55,475 bases of DNA. Source: a virus (taxonomy: Duplodnaviria; Caudoviricetes). The stretch lies in the IMG/VR virus record IMGVR_UViG_3300025430_000028, positions 1 to 55,475 of that record; one strand, written 5' to 3'. The stretch's first letter is position 1; each line of letters begins with the position of its first letter. The position numbers and the translations under genes are program-made. Of the stretch, positions 3,517 to 46,071 are shown piece after piece. The notes beneath the pieces are model-generated. The model was not told where the DNA came from, searched no databases, and saw nothing but the letters and a program-made list of their open reading frames with translations.

Positions 3517-6500
3517 TTAATTTTTTATACGCTTTTGTAAATCTTCTACTTTTTTCTCTAATTCCTGAATTGCATTAATTAATATAGGCACTAAATTCTC
3601 ACTCTTAATACCCAAATATTCAGAATCTTTAGATATAGGTTTTACTATTTCAGGTATTACTTTCTGCACTTCTTGGGCTAATAATCCGTATGTTAAGTTT
3701 TCTTTATTAGCATCTGAATTATAGTAGAATTGTTTGGTATTTAGCTTCATTACTGCATCAAGACCATAATTTAATGGAGATATTGAGTTTTTAAGTCTTA
3801 TATCAGAAGGGTTAGTATTTGTCAAAAATCCACTACTTGAATATACTGTTCCTGTTCCTAAACTATTAACTACTGCTCCATTTAACCATGCAGTACCATA
3901 TACTTGAAATTTATATCCATTATCTGTAGTTGTTCCCACAAGTAAATTACCAGAACTTGTAAATCTCATGCCTTCTAATTGAGATGAACCATATTGCCAT
4001 ATGTGTGCTGTATTTGCAGAATAATAATTATATCCACTACCTACGTTATCTATTGCTACATATCCTGCTACTCCTACTGCTTTAAATGGTGTTACTCCTG
4101 CTGTAGAATTATTAATGTGTAATAATGCACTTGGACTTGTAGTACCTATACCTACATTGCCTGTGCTACCATCAATTCTAAATCTTTCTAGAGTAAGAGG
4201 AATTGAACCATTCCATTGTGTAGTAGATAAAGTAAAAATGCTTGAAGCAGCTCCACCTACAGGATTATATATATTTTTTAATACGATAGGATATTGAACT
4301 CCATTCCAAACTTGTGTTAAATTTAATTGAGATGAAGTTGAACTACTAGATGAGCCTAATATATTTACTACAGTTGGTCCTGCATCATTTCCTGTTCTAG
4401 TATTTCCAAAAATACCATCCGTTCCTGCCGTTACACTACTTGAGAATGTAGCAGCTCCTCCTGCACCTAATTTAAAAATAGTTGAATATGTTAATGAACT
4501 ATAACTTGATTGTGGACTTGACCATTGAAAAAGTAAATTGGCTGCATCAGCATCAGTATCATATCTAACTGAAAATCCTTGTGACGATGTTGCTCCTGCG
4601 TGACCTAAAAATTGCAATAATGCACCACCATTTGTAGTTGATTTGCTTCCATATAATCCTTCAAAAGAATAAGTTGCTCCTGAATAATAACTTCCAGTTA
4701 ACGAACCATTAAAACTTGTTGCATTTACACTACTTGAGAATGTAGCAGCTCCTGTGGAGGCTATGGTAAGTCTAGGAGTGCTACCTGTTTGTAAATTTAA
4801 TCCATTAGAATTTTGGAATATACCACTTACATAAGAACCTGCACCATTAAAAAATATACCTCCATTGCTATAAGTAAACATATCTGAATTAAAATAGCTT
4901 GTCCCATTAACCTGTAGCTTATACCCTGCATCTGTTTGGGTATTTATCAAAAAATTTCCAGAGCTTGTAAGTCTTGCCTTTTCAGTAGAAGTGTTTGAAT
5001 ATCCCAATAATAAGTTATTAGCACTATTCCATGTTATCGCAAAATCTCCTGCTACTGCTCCTGTAATATAGTTATTAGACTGAGTAGCCATCCCGTATAA
5101 AGCTGAGTATGTGGGGGATGCTATGTTATCCGCAAATCTTATCGAAGGTCCTGTTCCTGTTACCGCCATTTGGTTATCCGCACTTGCACTATAAACTACA
5201 AATCGCCTTCCACCATTAGTTGTAGTATTAACCATAAACCCTGTACCATCATCATAAGCTGTACTTGTATTAACAGTATTTGTTCCTGTCCATTTGGTTA
5301 TATAGTTAGTTGTTCCTGTTCCTGTTACGGGATTGGTAAGAGCATTTTGTTTATTATTAAAAGTATTCCAATCTGTAGAACTTAAATAACCATTACTACT
5401 TGTAGTTGCTTGTGAAATAGAAATAGCCGGAGTAGTACCACCCGAAGATGAAATAGGAGAAGTCCCTGTTACGCTTGTAACATAAGTTCCTGCTGCCTGA
5501 TATTGCGGAATATTTAAAACCCCTGTACTTGTAGTATAGGTAGCTGCTCCACTTGTTCCTGTTGTTGTTAAACTTATTGCATTTCTTGGATAGAATGTTT
5601 TATATCCTGCAAGCATCGAGGCAGTATCAGTATAATTAACCTTTAAAGCAGTAACACCTAAAACATTATTAAATCGAGGTTGTATTGTTGCAGTATCCGC
5701 ATTTAAAGCTACTATCCCTGTACGGTAGTTATTCAACATTGAGGCTGTATCAGTATAGTTTACTTTTGTAGCTACCACCCCTAATACATTATTAAATCGA
5801 GGTTGTATTGTAGCTGTATCTGCATTAAGGGCTATTATACCTGTTCTATAATTATTTAACATCGAGGCTGTATCAGAATACTTAACATCTACTCCTCTAC
5901 TACTATCTACATAATTTTTATCTACCTTAGTTCTTGAAGTATAAGATGACCCTAAATTTGAAGTATAAGTATCTAATCCCGAAGAATTAATTGTACCTGT
6001 AGTGCTAAACCCTGCTGTTCCTGCTGTGCTATTGGAAGGGAAGAAAACATGGACATCCCATTGACCTGCTGAAAAGCTATTAGATAATAAAATAACCTCA
6101 ACATATCCCCCCGAAGGAACTGTATATAACGCACCCCCACCATATTGTTGTATTGCTAAACCACCTGTAGCATTATTGTTAAATTGATAAGTATTTCCTA
6201 TTGCGATAGTTGTTGCATTGGGTAATACTATTGTAGTTGTAGTTGGTGCACCACTTGTTATATACCAGTTCTGTGATGATGAACTTGTCATATTAGTAGT
6301 AGAACCACCTGCTACCCCTGTTACTGCAGATTGAAACCCATTAGCTGAAACAAAACCTGTAAAATTAGCAGTAGTTCCATTTAAATTACCCGTTAAAGTA
6401 CCACCACTTAAAGGCAAATAACCGCCACTTACTGACCTTGTATAAGGTGCTAACATTGCAGCCGTATCACTATACTTAACTCTTGCAGCAATTTGAGCAG

Positions 6501-9406: not shown

Positions 9407-10249
9407 TTACAATGAAACATAGGTTACAGAAATAACTTCACCATCTAAGAAAACATCACCTGTTGGAGGTGTAAATGTACCTGTAGATGGGGTATATTGT
9501 ATTTGGTTCATATTTGACGTAGAAGTCAATACCGGCTGCTTAACTTGAGTATCTCTACTAACCAAAACTAAATCTGTAATCGGAACGTTTATTAATTGAG
9601 AGAAAGCATATGAGATTGCAGAGCCTACAAATGTATGATAAAGAGTAGGTTGCAAGGTCTTACCACTTGTATTAGAAGTAGCCAATCCCTTGTTGTATTC
9701 GTATATAAATACCTGTCCTGCTTGTGCAGGGAAGTTTAAAGTAACAATAATTGATGAAGAACTATATAGAATAGTATAGCTATTTTGGTTGGTAGCTCCT
9801 TGTGGAATTTGAAGCCCATCCACCGTCATTAAGAAACTACCAGCCACGATTCTGCTATCTGTAATTGTAAATGTAGTACCACCAACACCTAATGGCGCAC
9901 TTGACTCCCCTATAGTAAATTGATTTTGAACCATCAATATACCATTTAACAATTCTCCAGTAGTTGGGTTATAGATAATATTACCACTAGATTGAGTAAC
10001 AATAGACCTTGCTAAAACACCATAGTAACCGCACAATTGATAAACCCAATTAGCTACCTGAGTTAATGTAGGTTCTGTAGGGTTATTTGTATAACACCAA
10101 GCCAATGCAGCGTTTTCTGCATATATTTTTTGAGGCAAAGATGGGTCTAAACTACCTGTATTGAAAATTTCATTGGTAGTAACCGCATTTTGAGCCAAAT
10201 ATTCAGAAACTTTAGCTATATTTATTATCTGCTTGGTCGTTAGTGCCAT
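9407..10249 (-). CDS. putative tail structural protein (fibre docking/hub candidate); start corrected to MALTTK at 10249
   Basis: ATG overlaps the upstream TAA (TAATG coupling); helical N-terminus followed by beta-rich domains. Confidence 0.6.
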   Translation of the reverse strand: MALTTKQIINIAKVSEYLAQNAVTTNEIFNTGSLDPSLPQKIYAENAALAWCYTNNPTEPTLTQVANWVYQLCGYYGVLARSIVTQSSGNIIYNPTTGELLNGILMVQNQFTIGESSAPLGVGGTTFTITDSRIVAGSFLMTVDGLQIPQGATNQNSYTILYSSSSIIVTLNFPAQAGQVFIYEYNKGLATSNTSGKTLQPTLYHTFVGSAISYAFSQLINVPITDLVLVSRDTQVKQPVLTSTSNMNQIQYTPSTGTFTPPTGDVFLDGEVISVTYVSL

Positions 10250-10764
10250 TAGAATAAGAAGTTTTGATTTGCTATTAAATATTGTGCTCTGTTTAAAGCA
10301 TCTTGTGCAGAAGCTATATCGTTCCCATAATTCACAGCATTCGAGCATTCATCTATAAACGTTCTCAATAATAACTTATTTTGATAATAAGAACTATCTC
10401 TAATTGGTATTTGACCTGAAGCTATATATTGAGTTAGATTGTAGTAAAATAATTCACTATTAAGAGTAAAGGCAAATAAAGCATTTACTGTGTATTGAGG
10501 AACTGTTGCTACCATCCACTCTACTGTAATACTTAATGCATAATCTTGATTTAATACATTAATATTAATAAAGCTAGGGCCTAACGGCCAATCAACATAA
10601 TTAGTATTCGTTCCTGTAGGCACTAAGTACGTACCATCGGCCTGTTGTATATAAACCCTTCTTCCTGTAATAGCTACATCTGACCCAGTAGAAGTATCAT
10701 TTACAACTAGGATACTAGGCTGAGAAAAATTTTGTGCTACTGTGAATGCTGGTGAAAATGACAT
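10249..10764 (-). CDS. putative tail structural protein
   Basis: 171 aa ORF, beta-rich then helical; promoter at 10782-10789; lies between the ejection and fibre genes. Confidence 0.6.
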   Translation of the reverse strand: MSFSPAFTVAQNFSQPSILVVNDTSTGSDVAITGRRVYIQQADGTYLVPTGTNTNYVDWPLGPSFININVLNQDYALSITVEWMVATVPQYTVNALFAFTLNSELFYYNLTQYIASGQIPIRDSSYYQNKLLLRTFIDECSNAVNYGNDIASAQDALNRAQYLIANQNFLF

Positions 10765-10832: not shown

Positions 10833-13800
10833 TTATTTAGCTTCTGCAACTCTAAACCCTGTTGAACCAGAAATAGCTCCACTTAATATACCTTTAAGAA
10901 CATCATTAAGCTGAGATTCATCTGCTCCATTATCAATTGCAGATTGGTATGTCACCTTAGCAGCTTCGGCAACAGGTAATGGAGCTTTTTGAAATAAATA
11001 TTCCCAAGCGGTAAGTGTATGTTTACCTTTTTTTGGCTCATCTCCTATATATGGTAATGGATTACCAAAAAAATCAGACCTTGTAACTAAATCTACAGGA
11101 ATGGAATATCCCGGAGCTAGTTTACCTCTACCATACCCAATAGCTTTTTCACCTAATATATCTATTCTACTTTTCCCATAAAGTTCTTCTTGAGGTTTAA
11201 TAGCAGCTTTTGTCAATTCTTTTATAAAATTTAAGACTCCAATTTGACCAGAACTAGGGTCTATCATTAAATTACCAAATTTAAATTTAAGCCAATCAGA
11301 TTTAGAAGGGTCTAATAAATTTACTTTTTTATCAGGGTTCAATACACTTTGCAACCCTGCATTAGCTCCTAATAATATAGTCATAGTTGCTAATTGCTGA
11401 CCTACTCTGTTTGCCCATACTTTTGCAAAAGCTCTTTCTGCTGCTGTGGATTGACTAGGATTAGTTAATGCTTTTATAGCATAAGTAGTTGCTTGCACAG
11501 GATTCCTAGTTAATTTAGCCCATCTTGAAGCTTCCATACCTCCTGCAAATGTTACTTCATTTACCCATTTAGGTACATTTAAATTAGTAGCCCCTGTTGC
11601 GTTATTAATTAATCTAGCTATGCTTTTAGCTACTTCTGGGTCAGCCTTATCAGCTTCACTTAATTTATTAAACTCGCTATCAAATAACCCTTGTCTTAAT
11701 ACTTTAATAGCATTAAAACCTTTTTCCCCAGCAGCTCCTGCCTTTGATAAGAATCTAGGCATATATTTTTGAGATGTCTGAAATTCTTCTATATCTTTTG
11801 CAGATGTAGCATCAGGATTATTTTTTAACCCTGCTCTTTGAGCTGTAACGTAATTAGGGCTATGTTTAAGTTCATTAATAGCTTTTTGATAATTAGCCTC
11901 ACTACCATAAGCAAATTTCCATCCATTTAAAAATGCAGGTATAGTTTGTTTCCATGTTGAAGGCTGAAATAATGTCATACCAGCGTGAGTCCCAACAAAT
12001 ATACCACCATGACCAAAAACACTTATACTTCTAAATAAATTTGTAACTTTTCTAACTGATTTAGGTATCCCAGATAAAGCTTGTTCGTCAATCCAATTTT
12101 CAGTAGCAACTCTACCCCTATTATAATCATATTCACGTTTCCACATAGCATCTGAAATTCGTTGCGTTTTAGGAGTATTTATAGCTTCATTAACTTGTCT
12201 CCATGATAATCCTAAATCACTAGCCACATACCCAATCATATCTCTATAAGAAGCTCCTTTATCTAAATAAGTATCTTTAGCGTATTTCCAAATATCCTTA
12301 GATTCATCAATGTTAAATTTATTATCTCTTTTGTCTTTAAATTTATTTTGTAAATCATTTAATCTTTCTTCATTCTGTTTAGCTATTTCATCATCAGTTA
12401 AAGGCTTTTCACCTTTAGATTTTAAAATACCTAAATTTTTCTTTAAATCATATATATCATCATTTAATTTATCTATTTTTTGTTGCTGCTCAGGTGTTGG
12501 ATTTAAATTACTTTCTTTTTTTTGTTTAACTATCCCTCTTTCTAAATCATCTTTTTCTTTTTCAAGCAATCTTATTTTTCTATCTTCAGGAGTTTCTTTA
12601 ATTGCATCAGTATAATGCTGTGTTAAATCTTTTTCTAATTTATTTTTATCTTTATCTGATAATTTATTATACCATTCTGATTCTTTTATTTTATCCAAAA
12701 TAATAGCTACTCCATCTGCTATTTGTCCTGTTTTTTCAATAGCCTTAGCACCAAGTTCTACTAAGTCATTCCAAGACGCACCTTGTATTTGAATTGGGAT
12801 TTGATTACCATTTTCATCTGTAAACGTTAATGGCTTTGTTTTTAATTTTCTAAAAGTATCAGCATATTTTTTAGCTATTTCTGATAATTTCTTTTTAGGC
12901 TCATTTTCTACTCCTTCTCCTAAAAATTCTTTATTAGCTGCATCAACTGCATCTTTCTCAGCAACGGTTAATCTAGCTTTTCGTATTTGATTATCTTTAG
13001 TTAAAGATTTAGCTTTAGCTTCTTGCTCTTTTGTTAAAGCTTTTCTAGTAATAGCTTTAAATCTATTAGAAACTGCTTGAAAATCATCTGTATCTATATC
13101 TCTTTCACCTTGTAATGCAACAAAGCTTCTAGCTGCTTCTGTGCCAAGTAATTTAGTTTTTACAGCATATTCGGCAAGTTTGTTTAATGAATATTTATAT
13201 TCATCACTATCTATTCCAAATTCAGCAGCTACGGCATCTGATTCTTTTTTTAATTTTTCAAGTTGCGCTCTAGCTATAGATATTCTATCATGTAATGGTG
13301 CATTATAATCAGTAACATCATCAGGATTAGCTCCATTTTCTAAAAGAGTCCTTCCTCTGTCTGCATACCATTTTGGAGGGTAATATTGTCCTCTTATTGG
13401 TTCTGGTAAATTTAATTTTTTAGCTAAATTTGATAATGAACTATGTGAAACACCTACTAAATTTTTATCACCTTCCTCTACTCCTGTGGGAGCTTCGGTA
13501 CTTGTGGTTTTTTCATCATTGATAGTTTCCCCTTCCTTTTCTGCTTCTGGCTGCTCACCGACTTCTCCGGCAGGCTCTCCCCTTTGCTCGCCTGATTCCA
13601 CTCCTCCACGTTCACCCCCTGTTGCTCCAGTTTCTCCTTGTTGGCGTTGAAGTACGCTCTCTGCGCTTGGCTCTTGAATGGCATTTTTTGTTGTTTTTAT
13701 TGGTTCTTTTAATAAATTTTCTGCTTCTGATATTGGTATTAGTTGGGTTACTTTATTACCATTTTCATCTACCTTACTTACATTAACTAATCCTTTTCCT

Positions 13801-16800
13801 TTATTTATATTCTCTACAGTTCTTCCATCAGGCAATACAGCACCTTCTTTTAATTCAGATTCAGGTAATTCACCTTCCTCTTTTTTACCTAATTCTAAAA
13901 ATTTTTTAGTTGTTTCATCAGTCCATTTACCATCTGTCTCCTCTAAGGCCCTTAATGCTCTTGTAACCTTACTATGTGTTATAACGGCTGTTTCCTTTCC
14001 TAATTCATTTTTAGTATGGTCATACGCTTTTTCCATTCTATTTGTAAAACTATCAAATTTTTCAACTGTATTATCATTATTATATTCACCTTCAGTCCAT
14101 CCTTTTTCATCAAATGAGCCTTCGGGTTGACCATCATATCTACCTATATCGGCTGTTCTATAAATAGGATTTGATACGCTTTTAACTCCAGCAACTTCGG
14201 CTACTTTTTTACCAGTCTGTATTCCCCTTTCTACATCAGAATGTTCTACTGTAGTTAAATCTGGATTATTTTCTTTTATATAATTACCAATATCTTCAGC
14301 CTCTTGAAGTCCTTCAGGTGTTAAATGACTATCATCTTTTACTCCATTTTCTAGACCTTGCGCTGTTTTATTATCTTCCCCATGTTCAAATACTTTAGTT
14401 CCTGTAATTTCTATTGGCTGGACTTTACCTGCTCCTGTTGGTATTGGCTCTGCTTTAATTTCTTCTTTTTTGCTTGGTATCGCTTCTGTTATAAAAGTTC
14501 CTTTATAAACATCATCCATTTTATCTTTAATATCAGATAATCTTTTTGACATTGCATCCTGCAAATCTTTAGGTAAGTCTTTATTTAAATTACTTTCTAA
14601 ATCATCTTCTTGCATTTTTAAAAACATCAATTCATTCCTACTTTTATCATCTAATTTATTACCTTTAGCATCAACCATTGGTGTTTTTTCATAAACATCT
14701 TTTGCTCTTTGTATATTATCTCTTATTTGAGAAGCTTCTAATGGTTTTATAGTACCATCAGCTTCTTTTTGTTTTAATATACCTAATGCTTCTTCGCTAT
14801 TCTTACCTGCTAAATATAATTGTTCTTTTACCGCATCTGGAACATTTTTAGAAATTGCACCTATCCCAGTTCCAAATAATGCAAAATTCAATCCTTGTAA
14901 TATTTGTTGTTTTGCAAATTGATTATAATCAACATCTTTCCCATCAATCTTTTGCTGAATTAATTGTGAAGCCCCTAATATTGGTTGCATTTTAGCAGCA
15001 CCTAAAGCTCCTTCTTTTGCAGCTTCTGGTAGTTTTGAGAAAAAATCTTTTAATACACTTGGTTTATCTCTTAATGCAGTTAATATCTCATCATCACTTA
15101 ATTTATTTATAGCAATACCCATTGCGGTTTTAGTACCTGCTGCTGCTTTTATTCTTTCTGGGATATCACCAACTGTATATGCTAAAGCATTAATACCTGT
15201 ATTTGTAAAAGCTTTTAATCTTGGATTTGCTTCATTCTTAGCTGTAGCATTGGCTAATTCATCTTGATATGATGTAGCTAATACATTCCCAAATGTTGTA
15301 AATAATTTTTTACCTAATCCAGCAGTTGCTCCTCCACCTGTAAATGCTTCTGCTGCTATATAAGGGAATAAATCAGCAGCCATTTTACCTACCCCATAAA
15401 TTAATGTATTAGCTCCTACATTTAATCCTTCATCTGTTTTTTCTTGTGAATATTTATCTTTATTATCTATAAATAATCTAGCAACTTTTGTTTTTCTTTC
15501 TTCATCAGTTAATGTATAATCATTTTTAACTTCATCTATTTTATCTTGTAGCTCGTTATCTTTTAAAATTTTAAAATCTGGTAATGTAGTATTTGCTTGA
15601 GTAACATAAAGATTAGGCCCATTAACTTGCTCCCCTCCTAATGCATTTAATTGAGCTAATGCTTCCCCTTTTTGACTTCTAAATGGAGATGCTAGTAAAT
15701 TATATACACCTTGTCCTGTTTTATATGCATTATAAGCGGCTAAATTAGTTAAATAATCAACTCCTGTTTTTCTTTGTCCTAGTTCTTCTTGAGCTAATTT
15801 GTCTGCATCTAAATATGATATGTCAGGATATTTTACTGATAATTGTTTCATTTGCTCAGAAACATTATCCATTTTATCTTTATATTGATTTGCTTTTGCC
15901 AAATCATCTGGACTTAGACCATTTTGTTCTTTTGATTTTTTTACAAAATCATCATAATGAGATTTATTATTACTATATATTGTATTTAATCCAGTTTCTT
16001 CTAACTCTTTAAGCTTAGATTGTCTTGCTACATTAGCATAATAATCATTAGAAACATCTTCGTCTTTAAGATTTATATAATTAGATAATGCAGGTACTTC
16101 TTCTGGATGCTGTCTTGAATATAAATCAAATCCTATTGATTGAGCAGGATTAAGTCCGGGTATAGGATTATCTGTTCTTGATTTAACTGCGGCATCATTA
16201 CCATAAGCTAATGAGTGGTCTTTTACTAAATTTTTTAATGCATTTTGCTGGTCATCACTATTATCTATATATTTATGTATTAGATTTGTTGCATTATCAG
16301 TATCGGTTTTCTTTTGTTCATATGTCTTATCCACGCCCCCTGATTGCCCTGCACTTAATGCTGTTTTATCTGCATTTATTTCATCTATTTTTGAAGCCTT
16401 TAATTCAGGAGTTAAACTATTATCTTTATTTACATCTTCTATAGCATTATCCATTGCATTTATTAATGGATTCTGCCATTTTATACTAGAAACAGTTTGA
16501 TTGAATTTTACTTTATTATTTTTATATAAATCGGCTAAATATCCTTCACTACCATATCCAGAATTTGGGAGATTAGGTAAATCTGAAACAGCATCAGTAA
16601 AGTCAGTATCATATCCTTGACTTTTTAAATAATCTTTTATTTTTTTAGATTGTGCTACTTTTTCTTCATCTGGCTGAGTAGTTGAAACAACAGGGCCTCC
16701 AACAGTAGATGAGCTAGGCATATCTATTGTTTTAACAGCATTACCTAATTCTTTTGATTTTTTAGATAATTCTACTAATCCACCAATTAAATCAGCATCA

Positions 16801-17207
16801 TTTTCTGGAGATGGAGATTGTGATGGTAATCCTGATTGGGAGATATTTGTCGCACCACCTGCTGAACCAAGATTTTGAGGTTGTTGAGGTAACTGCTGAA
16901 CGTTTGCGCTTGGTTGTTGTTGGTTTTTTTTTTTTAATTGTGTAGCTTCTGGGAAGTATTGATTATAAAAATCAGATTTAGATTTTGTATATAACTTTTC
17001 ACCATCTGGCCCAACGGTATTAAATAAGTAATCTATATTATCTTTATTAGAATATTTTTGCTTAAAATCATTAAATGTTTTTGTATAAAGGCCTTCTTTA
17101 GATAACCCTTTCCATAGATTATATTTCGCATCTGTAGGAGTATTATCAACTTGTTGAGTAGGTTGTGGTTGTTCTTGCAAATTAATATCTTGTGTATCTA
17201 AAGCCAT
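10833..17207 (-). CDS. giant ejection/internal virion (polyvalent) protein containing a histidine-phosphatase-like domain
   Basis: 2124 aa, last of the ejection-protein series; Gly/Ala hydrophobic segments; EHG...LT.EG...SD..R..QT...THS motif set. Confidence 0.7.
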   Translation of the reverse strand: MALDTQDINLQEQPQPTQQVDNTPTDAKYNLWKGLSKEGLYTKTFNDFKQKYSNKDNIDYLFNTVGPDGEKLYTKSKSDFYNQYFPEATQLKKKNQQQPSANVQQLPQQPQNLGSAGGATNISQSGLPSQSPSPENDADLIGGLVELSKKSKELGNAVKTIDMPSSSTVGGPVVSTTQPDEEKVAQSKKIKDYLKSQGYDTDFTDAVSDLPNLPNSGYGSEGYLADLYKNNKVKFNQTVSSIKWQNPLINAMDNAIEDVNKDNSLTPELKASKIDEINADKTALSAGQSGGVDKTYEQKKTDTDNATNLIHKYIDNSDDQQNALKNLVKDHSLAYGNDAAVKSRTDNPIPGLNPAQSIGFDLYSRQHPEEVPALSNYINLKDEDVSNDYYANVARQSKLKELEETGLNTIYSNNKSHYDDFVKKSKEQNGLSPDDLAKANQYKDKMDNVSEQMKQLSVKYPDISYLDADKLAQEELGQRKTGVDYLTNLAAYNAYKTGQGVYNLLASPFRSQKGEALAQLNALGGEQVNGPNLYVTQANTTLPDFKILKDNELQDKIDEVKNDYTLTDEERKTKVARLFIDNKDKYSQEKTDEGLNVGANTLIYGVGKMAADLFPYIAAEAFTGGGATAGLGKKLFTTFGNVLATSYQDELANATAKNEANPRLKAFTNTGINALAYTVGDIPERIKAAAGTKTAMGIAINKLSDDEILTALRDKPSVLKDFFSKLPEAAKEGALGAAKMQPILGASQLIQQKIDGKDVDYNQFAKQQILQGLNFALFGTGIGAISKNVPDAVKEQLYLAGKNSEEALGILKQKEADGTIKPLEASQIRDNIQRAKDVYEKTPMVDAKGNKLDDKSRNELMFLKMQEDDLESNLNKDLPKDLQDAMSKRLSDIKDKMDDVYKGTFITEAIPSKKEEIKAEPIPTGAGKVQPIEITGTKVFEHGEDNKTAQGLENGVKDDSHLTPEGLQEAEDIGNYIKENNPDLTTVEHSDVERGIQTGKKVAEVAGVKSVSNPIYRTADIGRYDGQPEGSFDEKGWTEGEYNNDNTVEKFDSFTNRMEKAYDHTKNELGKETAVITHSKVTRALRALEETDGKWTDETTKKFLELGKKEEGELPESELKEGAVLPDGRTVENINKGKGLVNVSKVDENGNKVTQLIPISEAENLLKEPIKTTKNAIQEPSAESVLQRQQGETGATGGERGGVESGEQRGEPAGEVGEQPEAEKEGETINDEKTTSTEAPTGVEEGDKNLVGVSHSSLSNLAKKLNLPEPIRGQYYPPKWYADRGRTLLENGANPDDVTDYNAPLHDRISIARAQLEKLKKESDAVAAEFGIDSDEYKYSLNKLAEYAVKTKLLGTEAARSFVALQGERDIDTDDFQAVSNRFKAITRKALTKEQEAKAKSLTKDNQIRKARLTVAEKDAVDAANKEFLGEGVENEPKKKLSEIAKKYADTFRKLKTKPLTFTDENGNQIPIQIQGASWNDLVELGAKAIEKTGQIADGVAIILDKIKESEWYNKLSDKDKNKLEKDLTQHYTDAIKETPEDRKIRLLEKEKDDLERGIVKQKKESNLNPTPEQQQKIDKLNDDIYDLKKNLGILKSKGEKPLTDDEIAKQNEERLNDLQNKFKDKRDNKFNIDESKDIWKYAKDTYLDKGASYRDMIGYVASDLGLSWRQVNEAINTPKTQRISDAMWKREYDYNRGRVATENWIDEQALSGIPKSVRKVTNLFRSISVFGHGGIFVGTHAGMTLFQPSTWKQTIPAFLNGWKFAYGSEANYQKAINELKHSPNYVTAQRAGLKNNPDATSAKDIEEFQTSQKYMPRFLSKAGAAGEKGFNAIKVLRQGLFDSEFNKLSEADKADPEVAKSIARLINNATGATNLNVPKWVNEVTFAGGMEASRWAKLTRNPVQATTYAIKALTNPSQSTAAERAFAKVWANRVGQQLATMTILLGANAGLQSVLNPDKKVNLLDPSKSDWLKFKFGNLMIDPSSGQIGVLNFIKELTKAAIKPQEELYGKSRIDILGEKAIGYGRGKLAPGYSIPVDLVTRSDFFGNPLPYIGDEPKKGKHTLTAWEYLFQKAPLPVAEAAKVTYQSAIDNGADESQLNDVLKGILSGAISGSTGFRVAEAK
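13478..13684 (-). CDS. small basic protein MPFKSQAQRAY..., nested out of frame in the giant ejection gene
   Basis: Strong A-rich start context (aataaaaacaacaaaaaATG); N-terminus resembles MPFKS.AQR small phage proteins; locally higher GC. Confidence 0.55.
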   Translation of the reverse strand: MPFKSQAQRAYFNANKEKLEQQGVNVEEWNQASKGESLPEKSVSSQKQKRKGKLSMMKKPQVPKLPQE

Positions 17208-25939: not shown

Positions 25940-26566
25940 TTATACTATATCAACACCATCATTAGCCAATTCTTTAGGCTGAGTTCTCTCCATAACTAAC
26001 GCCTTAGCTATAAATTCAGTAATAACAGGTATATAATCAGGCGGAACATTTATTTCGCTATTAATATCTGTACTATCGCCTCCACTAATCATTCTTATAT
26101 TAGCATTATATTCTAATAATGATGTTATACTTTTTAAATATATAGTAGAACCTTCATTCCAATATAAAATCTTTGAAGGTATTGGCCTCATACTATCTAC
26201 ATATCCTACTTGATTTATACTAAGAGGTATGCAATCTAATGATATTTGATTACCATTTGTAATTTTCAAAGAAGCGATACCTTCATTTCTACCAATTCCT
26301 ACAGGTACTTCTGGTAAGCTAATTTTATATGTAAATTGTTGACTATTTGATATATCTAATCCCCTATATGTAGTATAGAATGAATTATTTACAAATGATA
26401 TATTCTCAATTTGTACGTTATCGGTATAGTTTTTTCTAGCAGCAAAACCAACAGCTTGAGATAAGTATTGATTAACTAAATTAATAGTAATATTACTATC
26501 ATCTGCTGGCTCTTCACCATATATTTGTCTTAGTATTTGTTCGCAAAGTTGGTATCTAGTAAGCAT
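25940..26566 (-). CDS. tail ring/adaptor protein
   Basis: 208 aa; position and helix-beta-helix layout like the neighbouring ring genes. Confidence 0.6.
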   Translation of the reverse strand: MLTRYQLCEQILRQIYGEEPADDSNITINLVNQYLSQAVGFAARKNYTDNVQIENISFVNNSFYTTYRGLDISNSQQFTYKISLPEVPVGIGRNEGIASLKITNGNQISLDCIPLSINQVGYVDSMRPIPSKILYWNEGSTIYLKSITSLLEYNANIRMISGGDSTDINSEINVPPDYIPVITEFIAKALVMERTQPKELANDGVDIV

Positions 26567-45117: not shown

Positions 45118-46071
45118 TTAATTATTTAAAATATTTATTATTTTAAAAATTTCAAAAGCAACTTGTGGTACTATTGCATTTCCATAGGCTTTTATTGATT
45201 CGTTTCTCCATTTAGAAAAGGTGATTCCGTCCAATTTGTTGGGAAGCCCATCATTTCCCCCACAAATCGGGGGTTCAACTGGGAAGTTTTTGAAGTTGTT
45301 AATTCCATCTCTGCTATTTGGTCTGTTAAATTTCCCTTGCCTCTCTTGTCCGATGTGTTCCCTCTGCTTGCTTGTGCTGTTGGTGTACATAGCATCCCAA
45401 CTAATGAATTCCTTTTCGCTTGACTCGGTGGTAAAGTTGAATTTTTCCCATCCTGTGCCATCGGTGTCGGGAACATGTTTATCATTACTCTCCCTAAATT
45501 TAAACTGTGAGAATCTTTTTTGTTTTTTGTTAATCTTCTCCCATTTTCGTTCATTTCGCATTGACTCGTCGGTTCTTGTGTCGTTGGAGTGGGCAATAAA
45601 CCAAATTCTTTCTCTTCTGTGCGGAGCGTTGACGCTTGCAGCAGGAATAATAAACGGTTGGACTTCATAACCTTGCCCTTCCAAGTCAGAACACACCTCA
45701 TCGAATACCAATCCCCCCCCCCAACTAACAAGTCCACGAACGTTTTCCCCAATAATCCATTCGGGTTGTACTTCTTTAATAACTCTAAGCATTTCAGGAA
45801 AGAGATGTCTTTCGTCGGCTTTCCCTTTTCTAAGCCCTGCTGTTGAGTATGGCTGGCACGGGAATCCTCCTGTAAGAATGTCAATACTTCCTCTGTGAAT
45901 AGAGAAGTCTGTTTTAGTAATGTCATTATAACTAATTGAATTTGGAAAATGATGTTTTAAAACTTTTTGTCCAAATGGATTCCATTCACAATGAAATATA
46001 TTTTCCCATCCCATCCATTCAGCAGCTAAATCAAAACCACCTATACCACTAAATAAACTTCCATGTCTCAT
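45118..46071 (-). CDS. C5 cytosine DNA methyltransferase, large (alpha) subunit
   Basis: Motifs I FSGIGG, IV GFPCQ, VI ENV, VIII RERIW, X YGNAIV; no motif IX in this frame. Confidence 0.92.
   Translation of the reverse strand: MRHGSLFSGIGGFDLAAEWMGWENIFHCEWNPFGQKVLKHHFPNSISYNDITKTDFSIHRGSIDILTGGFPCQPYSTAGLRKGKADERHLFPEMLRVIKEVQPEWIIGENVRGLVSWGGGLVFDEVCSDLEGQGYEVQPFIIPAASVNAPHRRERIWFIAHSNDTRTDESMRNERKWEKINKKQKRFSQFKFRESNDKHVPDTDGTGWEKFNFTTESSEKEFISWDAMYTNSTSKQREHIGQERQGKFNRPNSRDGINNFKNFPVEPPICGGNDGLPNKLDGITFSKWRNESIKAYGNAIVPQVAFEIFKIINILNN
45192..45926 (-). CDS. nested alternative-frame small (beta) subunit of the C5 methyltransferase
   Basis: 244 aa open frame wholly inside alpha; ends with motif-IX-like LNPRFVGEMMGFPTNWT. 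Confidence 0.75.
   Translation of the reverse strand: MTLLKQTSLFTEEVLTFLQEDSRASHTQQQGLEKGKPTKDISFLKCLELLKKYNPNGLLGKTFVDLLVGGGDWYSMRCVLTWKGKVMKSNRLLFLLQASTLRTEEKEFGLLPTPTTQEPTSQCEMNENGRRLTKNKKDSHSLNLGRVMINMFPTPMAQDGKNSTLPPSQAKRNSLVGMLCTPTAQASRGNTSDKRGKGNLTDQIAEMELTTSKTSQLNPRFVGEMMGFPTNWTESPFLNGETNQ

Follow-up and report, generated by a model that had tools for sequence, protein, structure and literature searches.

A small gene probably embedded out of frame in the linker of a giant virion-module gene belongs to a large, unnamed family of basic phage proteins

The closest known kind of gene arrangement to the one described here appears to be the embedded spanin pair of phages, as in lambda, where Rz1 lies inside Rz. 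The passages on such pairs in PMC6139136 describe a small gene located wholly within a larger gene of the same strand, in the +1 frame, with the shared DNA encoding a genetically flexible linker of the larger protein. Depending on the phage, the pair has an embedded or a separated architecture, and gene callers often miss the embedded partner (PMC6139136). A further point of reference is given by overprinted viral genes (reviewed in PMC8227390 and PMC7017920), for instance phiX174 E inside D. We analysed a stretch of viral DNA of 55,475 nucleotides (nt), hereafter the window, which is the whole of IMG/VR record IMGVR_UViG_3300025430_000028 (Caudoviricetes), a 55-kb viral record with an estimated completeness of 51%. 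Within a 2124-codon gene of its virion module we find a nested open reading frame (ORF) of 68 codons. Taken as a whole, the observations are best explained if this ORF is a functional gene that encodes a protein and is nested within the giant gene in its +1 frame, a reading that we consider likely on the strength of sequence comparisons.

The small gene of the window resembles Rz1 in that it shares the strand of its host gene, is read in the +1 frame, overlies a linker, occurs in both embedded and free architectures and is missed by annotation. Unlike the Rz/Rz1 pair, it is located in a virion module and not in a lysis cassette, and it sits at a domain junction with apparently differing histories on either side. 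The host gene is, unlike Rz, multi-domain, and it is about 14 times longer. Identity of the small protein as an o-spanin (Rz1-like) was considered and rejected: the protein contains no cysteine, hence no lipobox, and its neighbours are virion genes.

The nested ORF begins with ATG, ends with TAG and occupies positions 13478 to 13684 on the minus strand, in the +1 frame of the giant gene (10833 to 17207, minus strand). A small gene nested out of frame in a 2124-residue giant had been proposed in an initial annotation of the same DNA, and an ATG-started ORF of 68 codons is indeed present. Its start codon (13684-13682) is overlapped by the giant codon AAT (13685-13683), and it is the only other same-strand ORF of at least 50 residues inside the 6.4-kb giant gene. 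The product of 68 residues, beginning with MPFKSQAQRAYFNANKEKLEQQGVNVEEWNQASKG..., has an isoelectric point (pI) of 9.9. It consists of a conserved 41-residue head (codons 1-41; 13562 to 13684, minus strand) with a net charge of 0, followed by a Lys-rich tail (codons 42-68; 13481 to 13561, minus strand) with a net charge of +7, whose length and sequence differ among family members.

This DNA also encodes an acidic Glu/Gly-rich linker of the giant protein (residues 1175-1243; 13479 to 13685, minus strand). Read in the giant frame it begins with NAIQEPSAESVLQRQQGETG..., and the linker has a net charge of -11, a pI of 4.1 and a combined glycine and glutamate content of 39%. The host frame had been described as a disordered-looking linker with atypical, GC-richer codons, and the composition bears this out: the GC content of the nested ORF is 53.1%, compared with 31.1% in the rest of the giant gene and 31.4% in the window, and a 150-nt segment (13500-13649) reaches 52.7% with ~30-36% around it. 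At codon positions 1, 2 and 3 of the small frame the GC content is 52, 32 and 75%; at the giant gene's own third positions it is 12%. The layout is no assembly slip, because contigs of two other sequencing runs, X8 and X9, cover the region (13277-14529 and 12919-13743, respectively) with 0 differences to the window.

The free-standing homologues that the initial annotation had suggested looking for are numerous. A word-indexed search returned 17 called proteins of 47-102 residues (53-82% identity; E 1e-9 to 1e-14), an exhaustive HMMER search gave 375 representative clusters at E<=1e-3, and 239 viral loci carry the family. Most members are free-standing genes. A profile built from 18 family members matches the window ORF with E=1e-30. 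All share the architecture of a 41-residue head, with the consensus MPFKSxAQERYFNANRxKLExQGVNVDEWNQASKGxKLPxK, and a variable Lys/Arg-rich tail after the ...LP.K motif; the window protein has both parts. Alignment A1 of the head contains 17 invariant columns (M1, P2, K4, S5, Q8, F12, N13, A14, E20, G23, V24, V26, W29, N30, A32, G35 and L38), and the window protein has these residues.

The family is large and unnamed, and was found only in uncultured phages. Pfam, PHROGs and NCBIfam hold no model for it, and a profile search of the PDB with the family yielded only matches with E>=0.14. We take a match to NF032893 (E=0.069) as chance, since no other family member matches that model. A lead to DUF3008 (PF11450) came from one Atlas cluster (score 0.83), of which 15% of the members carry DUF3008; it was rejected, as 18 members and six divergent variants gave no match at E<=10. 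Among 185,579 species genomes the family occurs in contigs of metagenome-assembled genomes (MAGs) only, at 19 loci, from Bacteroidota, Acidobacteriota and others. In open-access papers, taken without their supplements, we found none on the family motif or on small genes in giant virion genes.

Long proteins make up 57 of the best 150 HMMER matches (hand count), and in 56 of these 57 (149-1022 residues) the head domain is found at or near the N-terminus (residues 1-59). Some of the long proteins with an N-terminal head also carry NUDIX or HExxH segments. A fused architecture of another kind is present in P0103 (586 residues), where the head lies in frame at the C-terminal end (residues 539-584). 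In addition, we observed five divergent small ORFs (L095 3870-4058, L106 3819-3992, L111 3735-3917, L104 1716-1862 and L088 2643-2804) that keep the starting MP[FY]xSxxQ and the later ...LPxK and diverge in the stretch that separates the two. Of these five, four are nested within a giant gene, again in the +1 frame, and three of the four (L095, L106 and L111) sit at the junction that the small gene occupies in the window; the ORF of L104 is located 1391 nt upstream of a giant ORF. These variants hint at a wider superfamily.

The embedded layout recurs. We surveyed the best 80 of the 239 viral loci, all found by likeness to the small protein, and 22 of the 80 have the small gene within an ORF of the same strand that exceeds 1000 codons. 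In every embedded locus the giant frame equals the small frame +2, which is the +1 nesting of the window. Eight free copies of this first set sit 3-12 nt behind an ORF of at least 984 residues. A second sample of 31 viral loci was selected solely by homology to the C-terminal domain of the giant protein (a locus search with the whole giant protein returned nothing, and an alignment of the C-terminal domain was used instead). Here an embedded +1 copy is present in nine of the 31 loci, eight of which (seven distinct, one cut by the contig end) start 92-182 nt before the C-terminal domain, as in the window. Four loci of this sample have a free copy 11-217 nt past the giant stop codon, one has a copy further upstream, and 17 have none. 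Four matches are weak (E 2e-4 to 0.44; L088, L108, L106 and L095) and represent divergent variants. Among the 19 MAG loci, three are embedded, again in the +1 frame. The expectation that the ATG and the open frame would be conserved in other giant genes is therefore borne out (22/80, 9/31 and 3/19 loci), as is the suggestion that NAIQE-like linkers hide an unannotated family: a giant-frame signature, NA[IVL]Q[EK], marks the embedded copies. Exact look-ups in a collection of 15 billion proteins retrieved none of ten embedded copies and all ten of ten free copies.

Of the 22 giants with an embedded copy in the first set, only two gave a match to the C-terminal domain profile; the module is therefore not tied to this domain. 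The small gene is repeatedly tied to giant genes, being located either within them or closely behind them, and the family can be described as one of small basic phage proteins that are usually free-standing and often encoded directly behind a giant gene. In one locus (L012), a family member embedded in a 2485-codon gene is followed, 12 nt further on, by a second small basic ORF of 53 residues (6205-6366, plus strand), which is likewise in the +1 frame; a second ORF of this kind is absent from the window.

We compared the constraint on the two frames in 17 distinct embedded copies over 41 codons, with counts that are not tree-aware. Changes that leave the small protein unaltered and affect the giant protein amount to 1.65 per possible site, compared with 0.44 for differences that are silent in the giant frame and change the small protein. 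Among the copies, amino-acid identity averages 71.5% for the small frame and 47.7% for the giant frame. In 10 disjoint pairs of embedded copies, hand-picked and counted without a tree, nucleotide differences at positions 1, 2 and 3 of the small frame number 69, 59 and 123, and the giant frame alters more residues in 10/10 pairs (sign test p=0.002). The second position of the small frame, which is the third position of the giant frame, is thus the least variable.

The third positions of the small frame carry an additional signal. Where a T would create a stop codon in the giant frame, T makes up 0% of the bases in embedded copies compared with 32% in free copies from low-GC phages, and at the other third positions 2% compared with 20%; G occupies 57% of the stop-making and 46% of the other third positions in embedded copies, versus 17% and 22% in free ones. 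The linkers of the embedded copies contain 17% Glu and 16% Gly, whereas the equivalent frame of the free copies contains 15% stop codons. Free copies in low-GC phages have no GC island (for example, 0.33 compared with 0.36 in the flanks of L026). We attribute the GC island to the purging of T and to G/C third positions that keep the giant frame open and Glu/Gly-rich. As judged from these alignments, the small frame is selected for its amino-acid sequence and the giant frame only for openness and composition. The initial annotation held that the nested gene constrains the linker. This stands insofar as selection acts mainly on the small frame in the 17 copies and 10 pairs, but the small protein by itself does not account for the GC-rich codons, since copies that stand free in low-GC phages are not GC-rich. 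Both frames shape the sequence, because the third positions are driven to G/C and T is purged for an open giant frame.

As in overprinted genes, one stretch of DNA would be read into two proteins in different frames, under unequal constraint and with a biased composition. The order of events would differ: because the small gene is widespread as a free-standing gene, it is older than the linker frame, and the giant linker would have been laid over it; in the usual case it is the small frame that arises de novo. The DNA encoding the head in the window is 70-79% identical to that of the 20 other embedded copies compared, which argues for an old small gene and no recent transfer.

Several observations weigh against a functional embedded gene or against parts of that reading. 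A hidden Markov model search detects the module in only one of the giant's 39 protein relatives, and the linkers of three (P0202, P0191 and P0204) contain degenerate NAIQ/NAIK-like stretches that may be decayed copies; further decayed copies would escape, because embedded copies were recognised by their resemblance to the small protein. The family is absent from 50,697 records of cultured phages, where tblastn with P0001 gave only two matches with E=9, tblastn with P0009 none, and blastn of the region none. A contig of a related strain (run X10) encodes a small protein with G35K, at a nearly invariant residue, together with S42V, V43G and S55A; five residues of its giant protein are also changed. 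The 10 pairs are perhaps not fully independent, as a tree of the 41 columns cannot separate one embedding from several. Shine-Dalgarno-like 4-mers precede the nested ATG in four of the 17 embedded copies, no more commonly than in the background, and we ascribe these motifs to the Glu/Gly codons of the linker. The sequencing runs listed as holding the sequence include no RNA run. Finally, the proposal that the small protein is a partner or internal protein is derived from gene neighbourhood and charge.

Some of these points (the absence of the module from most giant relatives, the linkers resembling decayed copies, the G35K variant and the want of an RNA run among the listed runs) would fit a silent relic, in which a free gene was swallowed by a fusion and its DNA now serves as linker only, with the small frame untranslated and unselected. 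We consider this improbable. All 23 embedded copies of the first set have preserved their start codon together with a frame of 51-68 codons, as have eight of the nine copies of the second set, the ninth (L112) being cut by the contig end, and the frames are kept although the copies are only 70-79% identical in DNA. Moreover, a sequence maintained as linker only is expected to vary most at the third position of the giant frame, which is the opposite of what we find.

The start context of the nested ORF had been ranked among the best in the window. This agrees with our counts: the nested ATG has 80% A at positions -15 to -1, the second highest value of 35 starts, an A at -3 and no upstream AUG nearby. 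It is preceded by an A-rich, unstructured leader (13685 to 13708, minus strand), which contains a small-frame TAA five codons before the ATG and is read in the giant frame as ...EPIKTTK. In the predicted RNA fold, ~50 nt upstream of the ATG are unpaired. According to PMC6847099, Bacteroidetes do without Shine-Dalgarno sequences, and an A at -3 and low structure favour initiation. The nested start context fits such Bacteroidota-type initiation, and phages with an embedded copy probably infect freshwater Bacteroidota. A Shine-Dalgarno-like motif precedes only one of 34 window genes. That gene (25940-26566, minus strand) has a strong AGGAGG before its start; the others have A/T-rich leaders. We hypothesize that ribosomes would initiate internally on the giant mRNA at the A-rich, unstructured leader, which is free of a Shine-Dalgarno sequence.

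Alternatively, the small frame could be reached by programmed frameshifting, either because translation departs from the giant frame at the run of A that precedes the ATG, producing a truncated giant that ends in the small domain, or because ribosomes that start at the nested ATG slip by -1 into the giant frame, producing a protein that mimics the long family members with an N-terminal head. The window has AAAAAA immediately before the ATG, and the products would have counterparts in the long proteins described above, with the head at or near the N-terminus in nearly all of them and at the C-terminus in P0103. Nevertheless, we regard recoding as very unlikely. A -1 slippery heptamer occurs in four of 17 copies at differing codons and none is conserved, which led us to reject a programmed -1 frameshift product; the bases before the ATG vary between copies, so that there is no common +1 site; and the small-frame stops are found at varied places, after 51-68 codons.

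The giant gene is placed in the structural module, between tail-fibre genes and the portal and terminase genes, and the genes flanking it in the window encode terminase, portal, virion and tail-fibre proteins. The giant protein of 2124 residues is present in a public protein collection. A Pfam scan recognises a single domain, His_Phos_1 (histidine phosphatase; residues 942-1087; 13947 to 14384, minus strand; E=6.7e-13; phrog_12933), upstream of the linker, and the label 'ejection protein' was not confirmed. Outside this domain, nothing in the family and structure libraries searched (Pfam, PHROG, PDB and NCBIfam) matched the giant protein. Right after the embedded gene begins, with VGVSH..., a conserved C-terminal domain of ~875 residues (10836 to 13457, minus strand), delineated by homology in alignment A3, which has no match in PDB, Pfam or NCBIfam. 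In most of the 39 protein relatives of the giant, homology begins at residues 1216-1251 of the giant. The linker is thus located at the junction of a variable front part, containing the histidine phosphatase, and the conserved C-terminal domain.

The leader offers a possible route to this layout. The motif aaccaaTAAaa is common to the window and three free copies (L083, L084 and L087), in which that TAA is the stop codon of the giant gene, 11-19 nt before the small ATG. Where the small gene is embedded, the bases of the TAA region are read as (I/L)K in the giant frame. We speculate that a giant gene with a TAA stop ~11 nt before the small ATG was shifted in frame by one base, and that the shifted giant frame then read through the small gene and fused to a downstream gene.

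The two sides of the module may have different histories, as indicated by mosaic flanks. The window together with L093, L103 and L095, and likewise L071 with L119, share 400 residues downstream and nothing upstream; L001 or L003 with L038 share the upstream side only; and L015 and L052 are discordant, with 79% upstream and 29% downstream. In a tree of the 41 columns, the architectures require 10 changes, compared with 17.3 for shuffled labels, and this tree cannot decide between one embedding event and several. At strain level, the X10 contig mentioned above (record 3, depth 14) matches the window over 13491-15500 with 42 differences, eight of which, in 13522-13582, alter both frames, and is unlike the window below 13491, so that similarity breaks 11 nt before the small-gene stop. 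Three more contigs, from runs X9 and X10, match the window over 33-44 nt only, at the small gene's 5' end (13652-13697), with both flanks unlike; other phages in these freshwater-metagenome runs apparently carry the same gene start.

Such breaks would also be seen if a nucleic-acid element, a recombination site or an RNA structure, were the conserved entity and both frames its by-products: the flanks of the module are mosaic, the strain contig breaks at its 3' end, and other contigs of the same runs match just the short stretch at its 5' end. We give this explanation little credence, because the variation is codon-patterned (the 69/59/123 distribution given above), the free coding homologues are conserved in amino acids with free third positions, and the RNA of the region shows no unusual structure, folding no better than shuffled sequences (z=+0.88). 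A chance ORF or an assembly artefact has next to no probability: GC-rich stretches do contain few stop codons in any frame, but the 17 free-standing relatives, the 375 clusters and the profile match rule out chance, no second same-strand alternative ORF of at least 50 residues exists in the 6.4-kb gene, and independent contigs are identical.

If the ORF is a functional embedded gene, as we favour, its role may be sought in the particle. The close association with giant genes, in which the small gene is embedded or which it follows at a distance of 3-19 nt, suggests that the two have a role in common in virion assembly or delivery. The small protein, with its neutral, helical head and +7 tail, might partner the giant virion protein or packaged DNA, and the conserved sequence of its gene might mark a joint at which the halves of giant genes exchange; these are the most speculative steps of our model. 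Combining them, the embedded gene could be a portable junction cassette, its strongly conserved DNA serving as the homologous joint for swapping front and rear halves of giant cargo genes, and its product, synthesised together with the giant protein, as a dedicated basic partner that docks onto the cargo or escorts it, or the DNA end, into the capsid, which we put forward tentatively and think doubtful.

Small, strongly basic internal head proteins encoded in or next to virion genes are known from T4 (IPI-III). The likeness is that of a small basic product near virion genes, not one established in sequence or structure. The giant protein also recalls the polyvalent proteins of phages and conjugative elements, as a phage protein of giant size and multi-domain make-up that includes an enzyme (His_Phos_1); the long family members with NUDIX or HExxH segments add to this likeness. 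Polyvalent proteins combine several effector or enzyme domains in one polypeptide; one known domain, His_Phos_1, was found in the giant protein of the window. In PMC5512222 (Iyer et al. 2017), none of the terms 'overlapping', 'frameshift', 'linker' and 'DUF3008' appears, and the sole 'reading frame' passage shown concerns neighbouring small ORFs and no embedded one.

Other overlaps are present elsewhere in the window. A gene for a C-5 cytosine DNA methylase (45118-46071, minus strand; Pfam E=3e-49) contains a 244-codon ORF in another frame of the same strand (45192-45926, minus strand), without a Pfam match, and a 149-codon ORF on the opposite strand. The ORFs 10249-10764 and 9407-10348 (minus strand) overlap by 100 nt when counted from their first start codons, probably because of a mis-set start and not as a true overlap.

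Because gene callers forbid genes within genes, embedded copies of the family are missing from public protein sets. Phage proteomes and small-protein catalogues therefore undercount systematically, and the gaps fall in precisely those giant virion and cargo genes whose interpretation is most difficult. Hidden copies can be sought by a simple marker, a GC island whose third positions lack T, combined with the NA[IVL]Q[EK] signature. If the junction cassette exists, it would be a 'linker-plus-partner' device so far undescribed, and many acidic linkers of giant phage proteins would hide genes. For the evolution of these phages, the locus would represent a long-lived dual-coding stretch, in which the older small gene dictates the sequence and the giant protein settles for an acidic, floppy linker.

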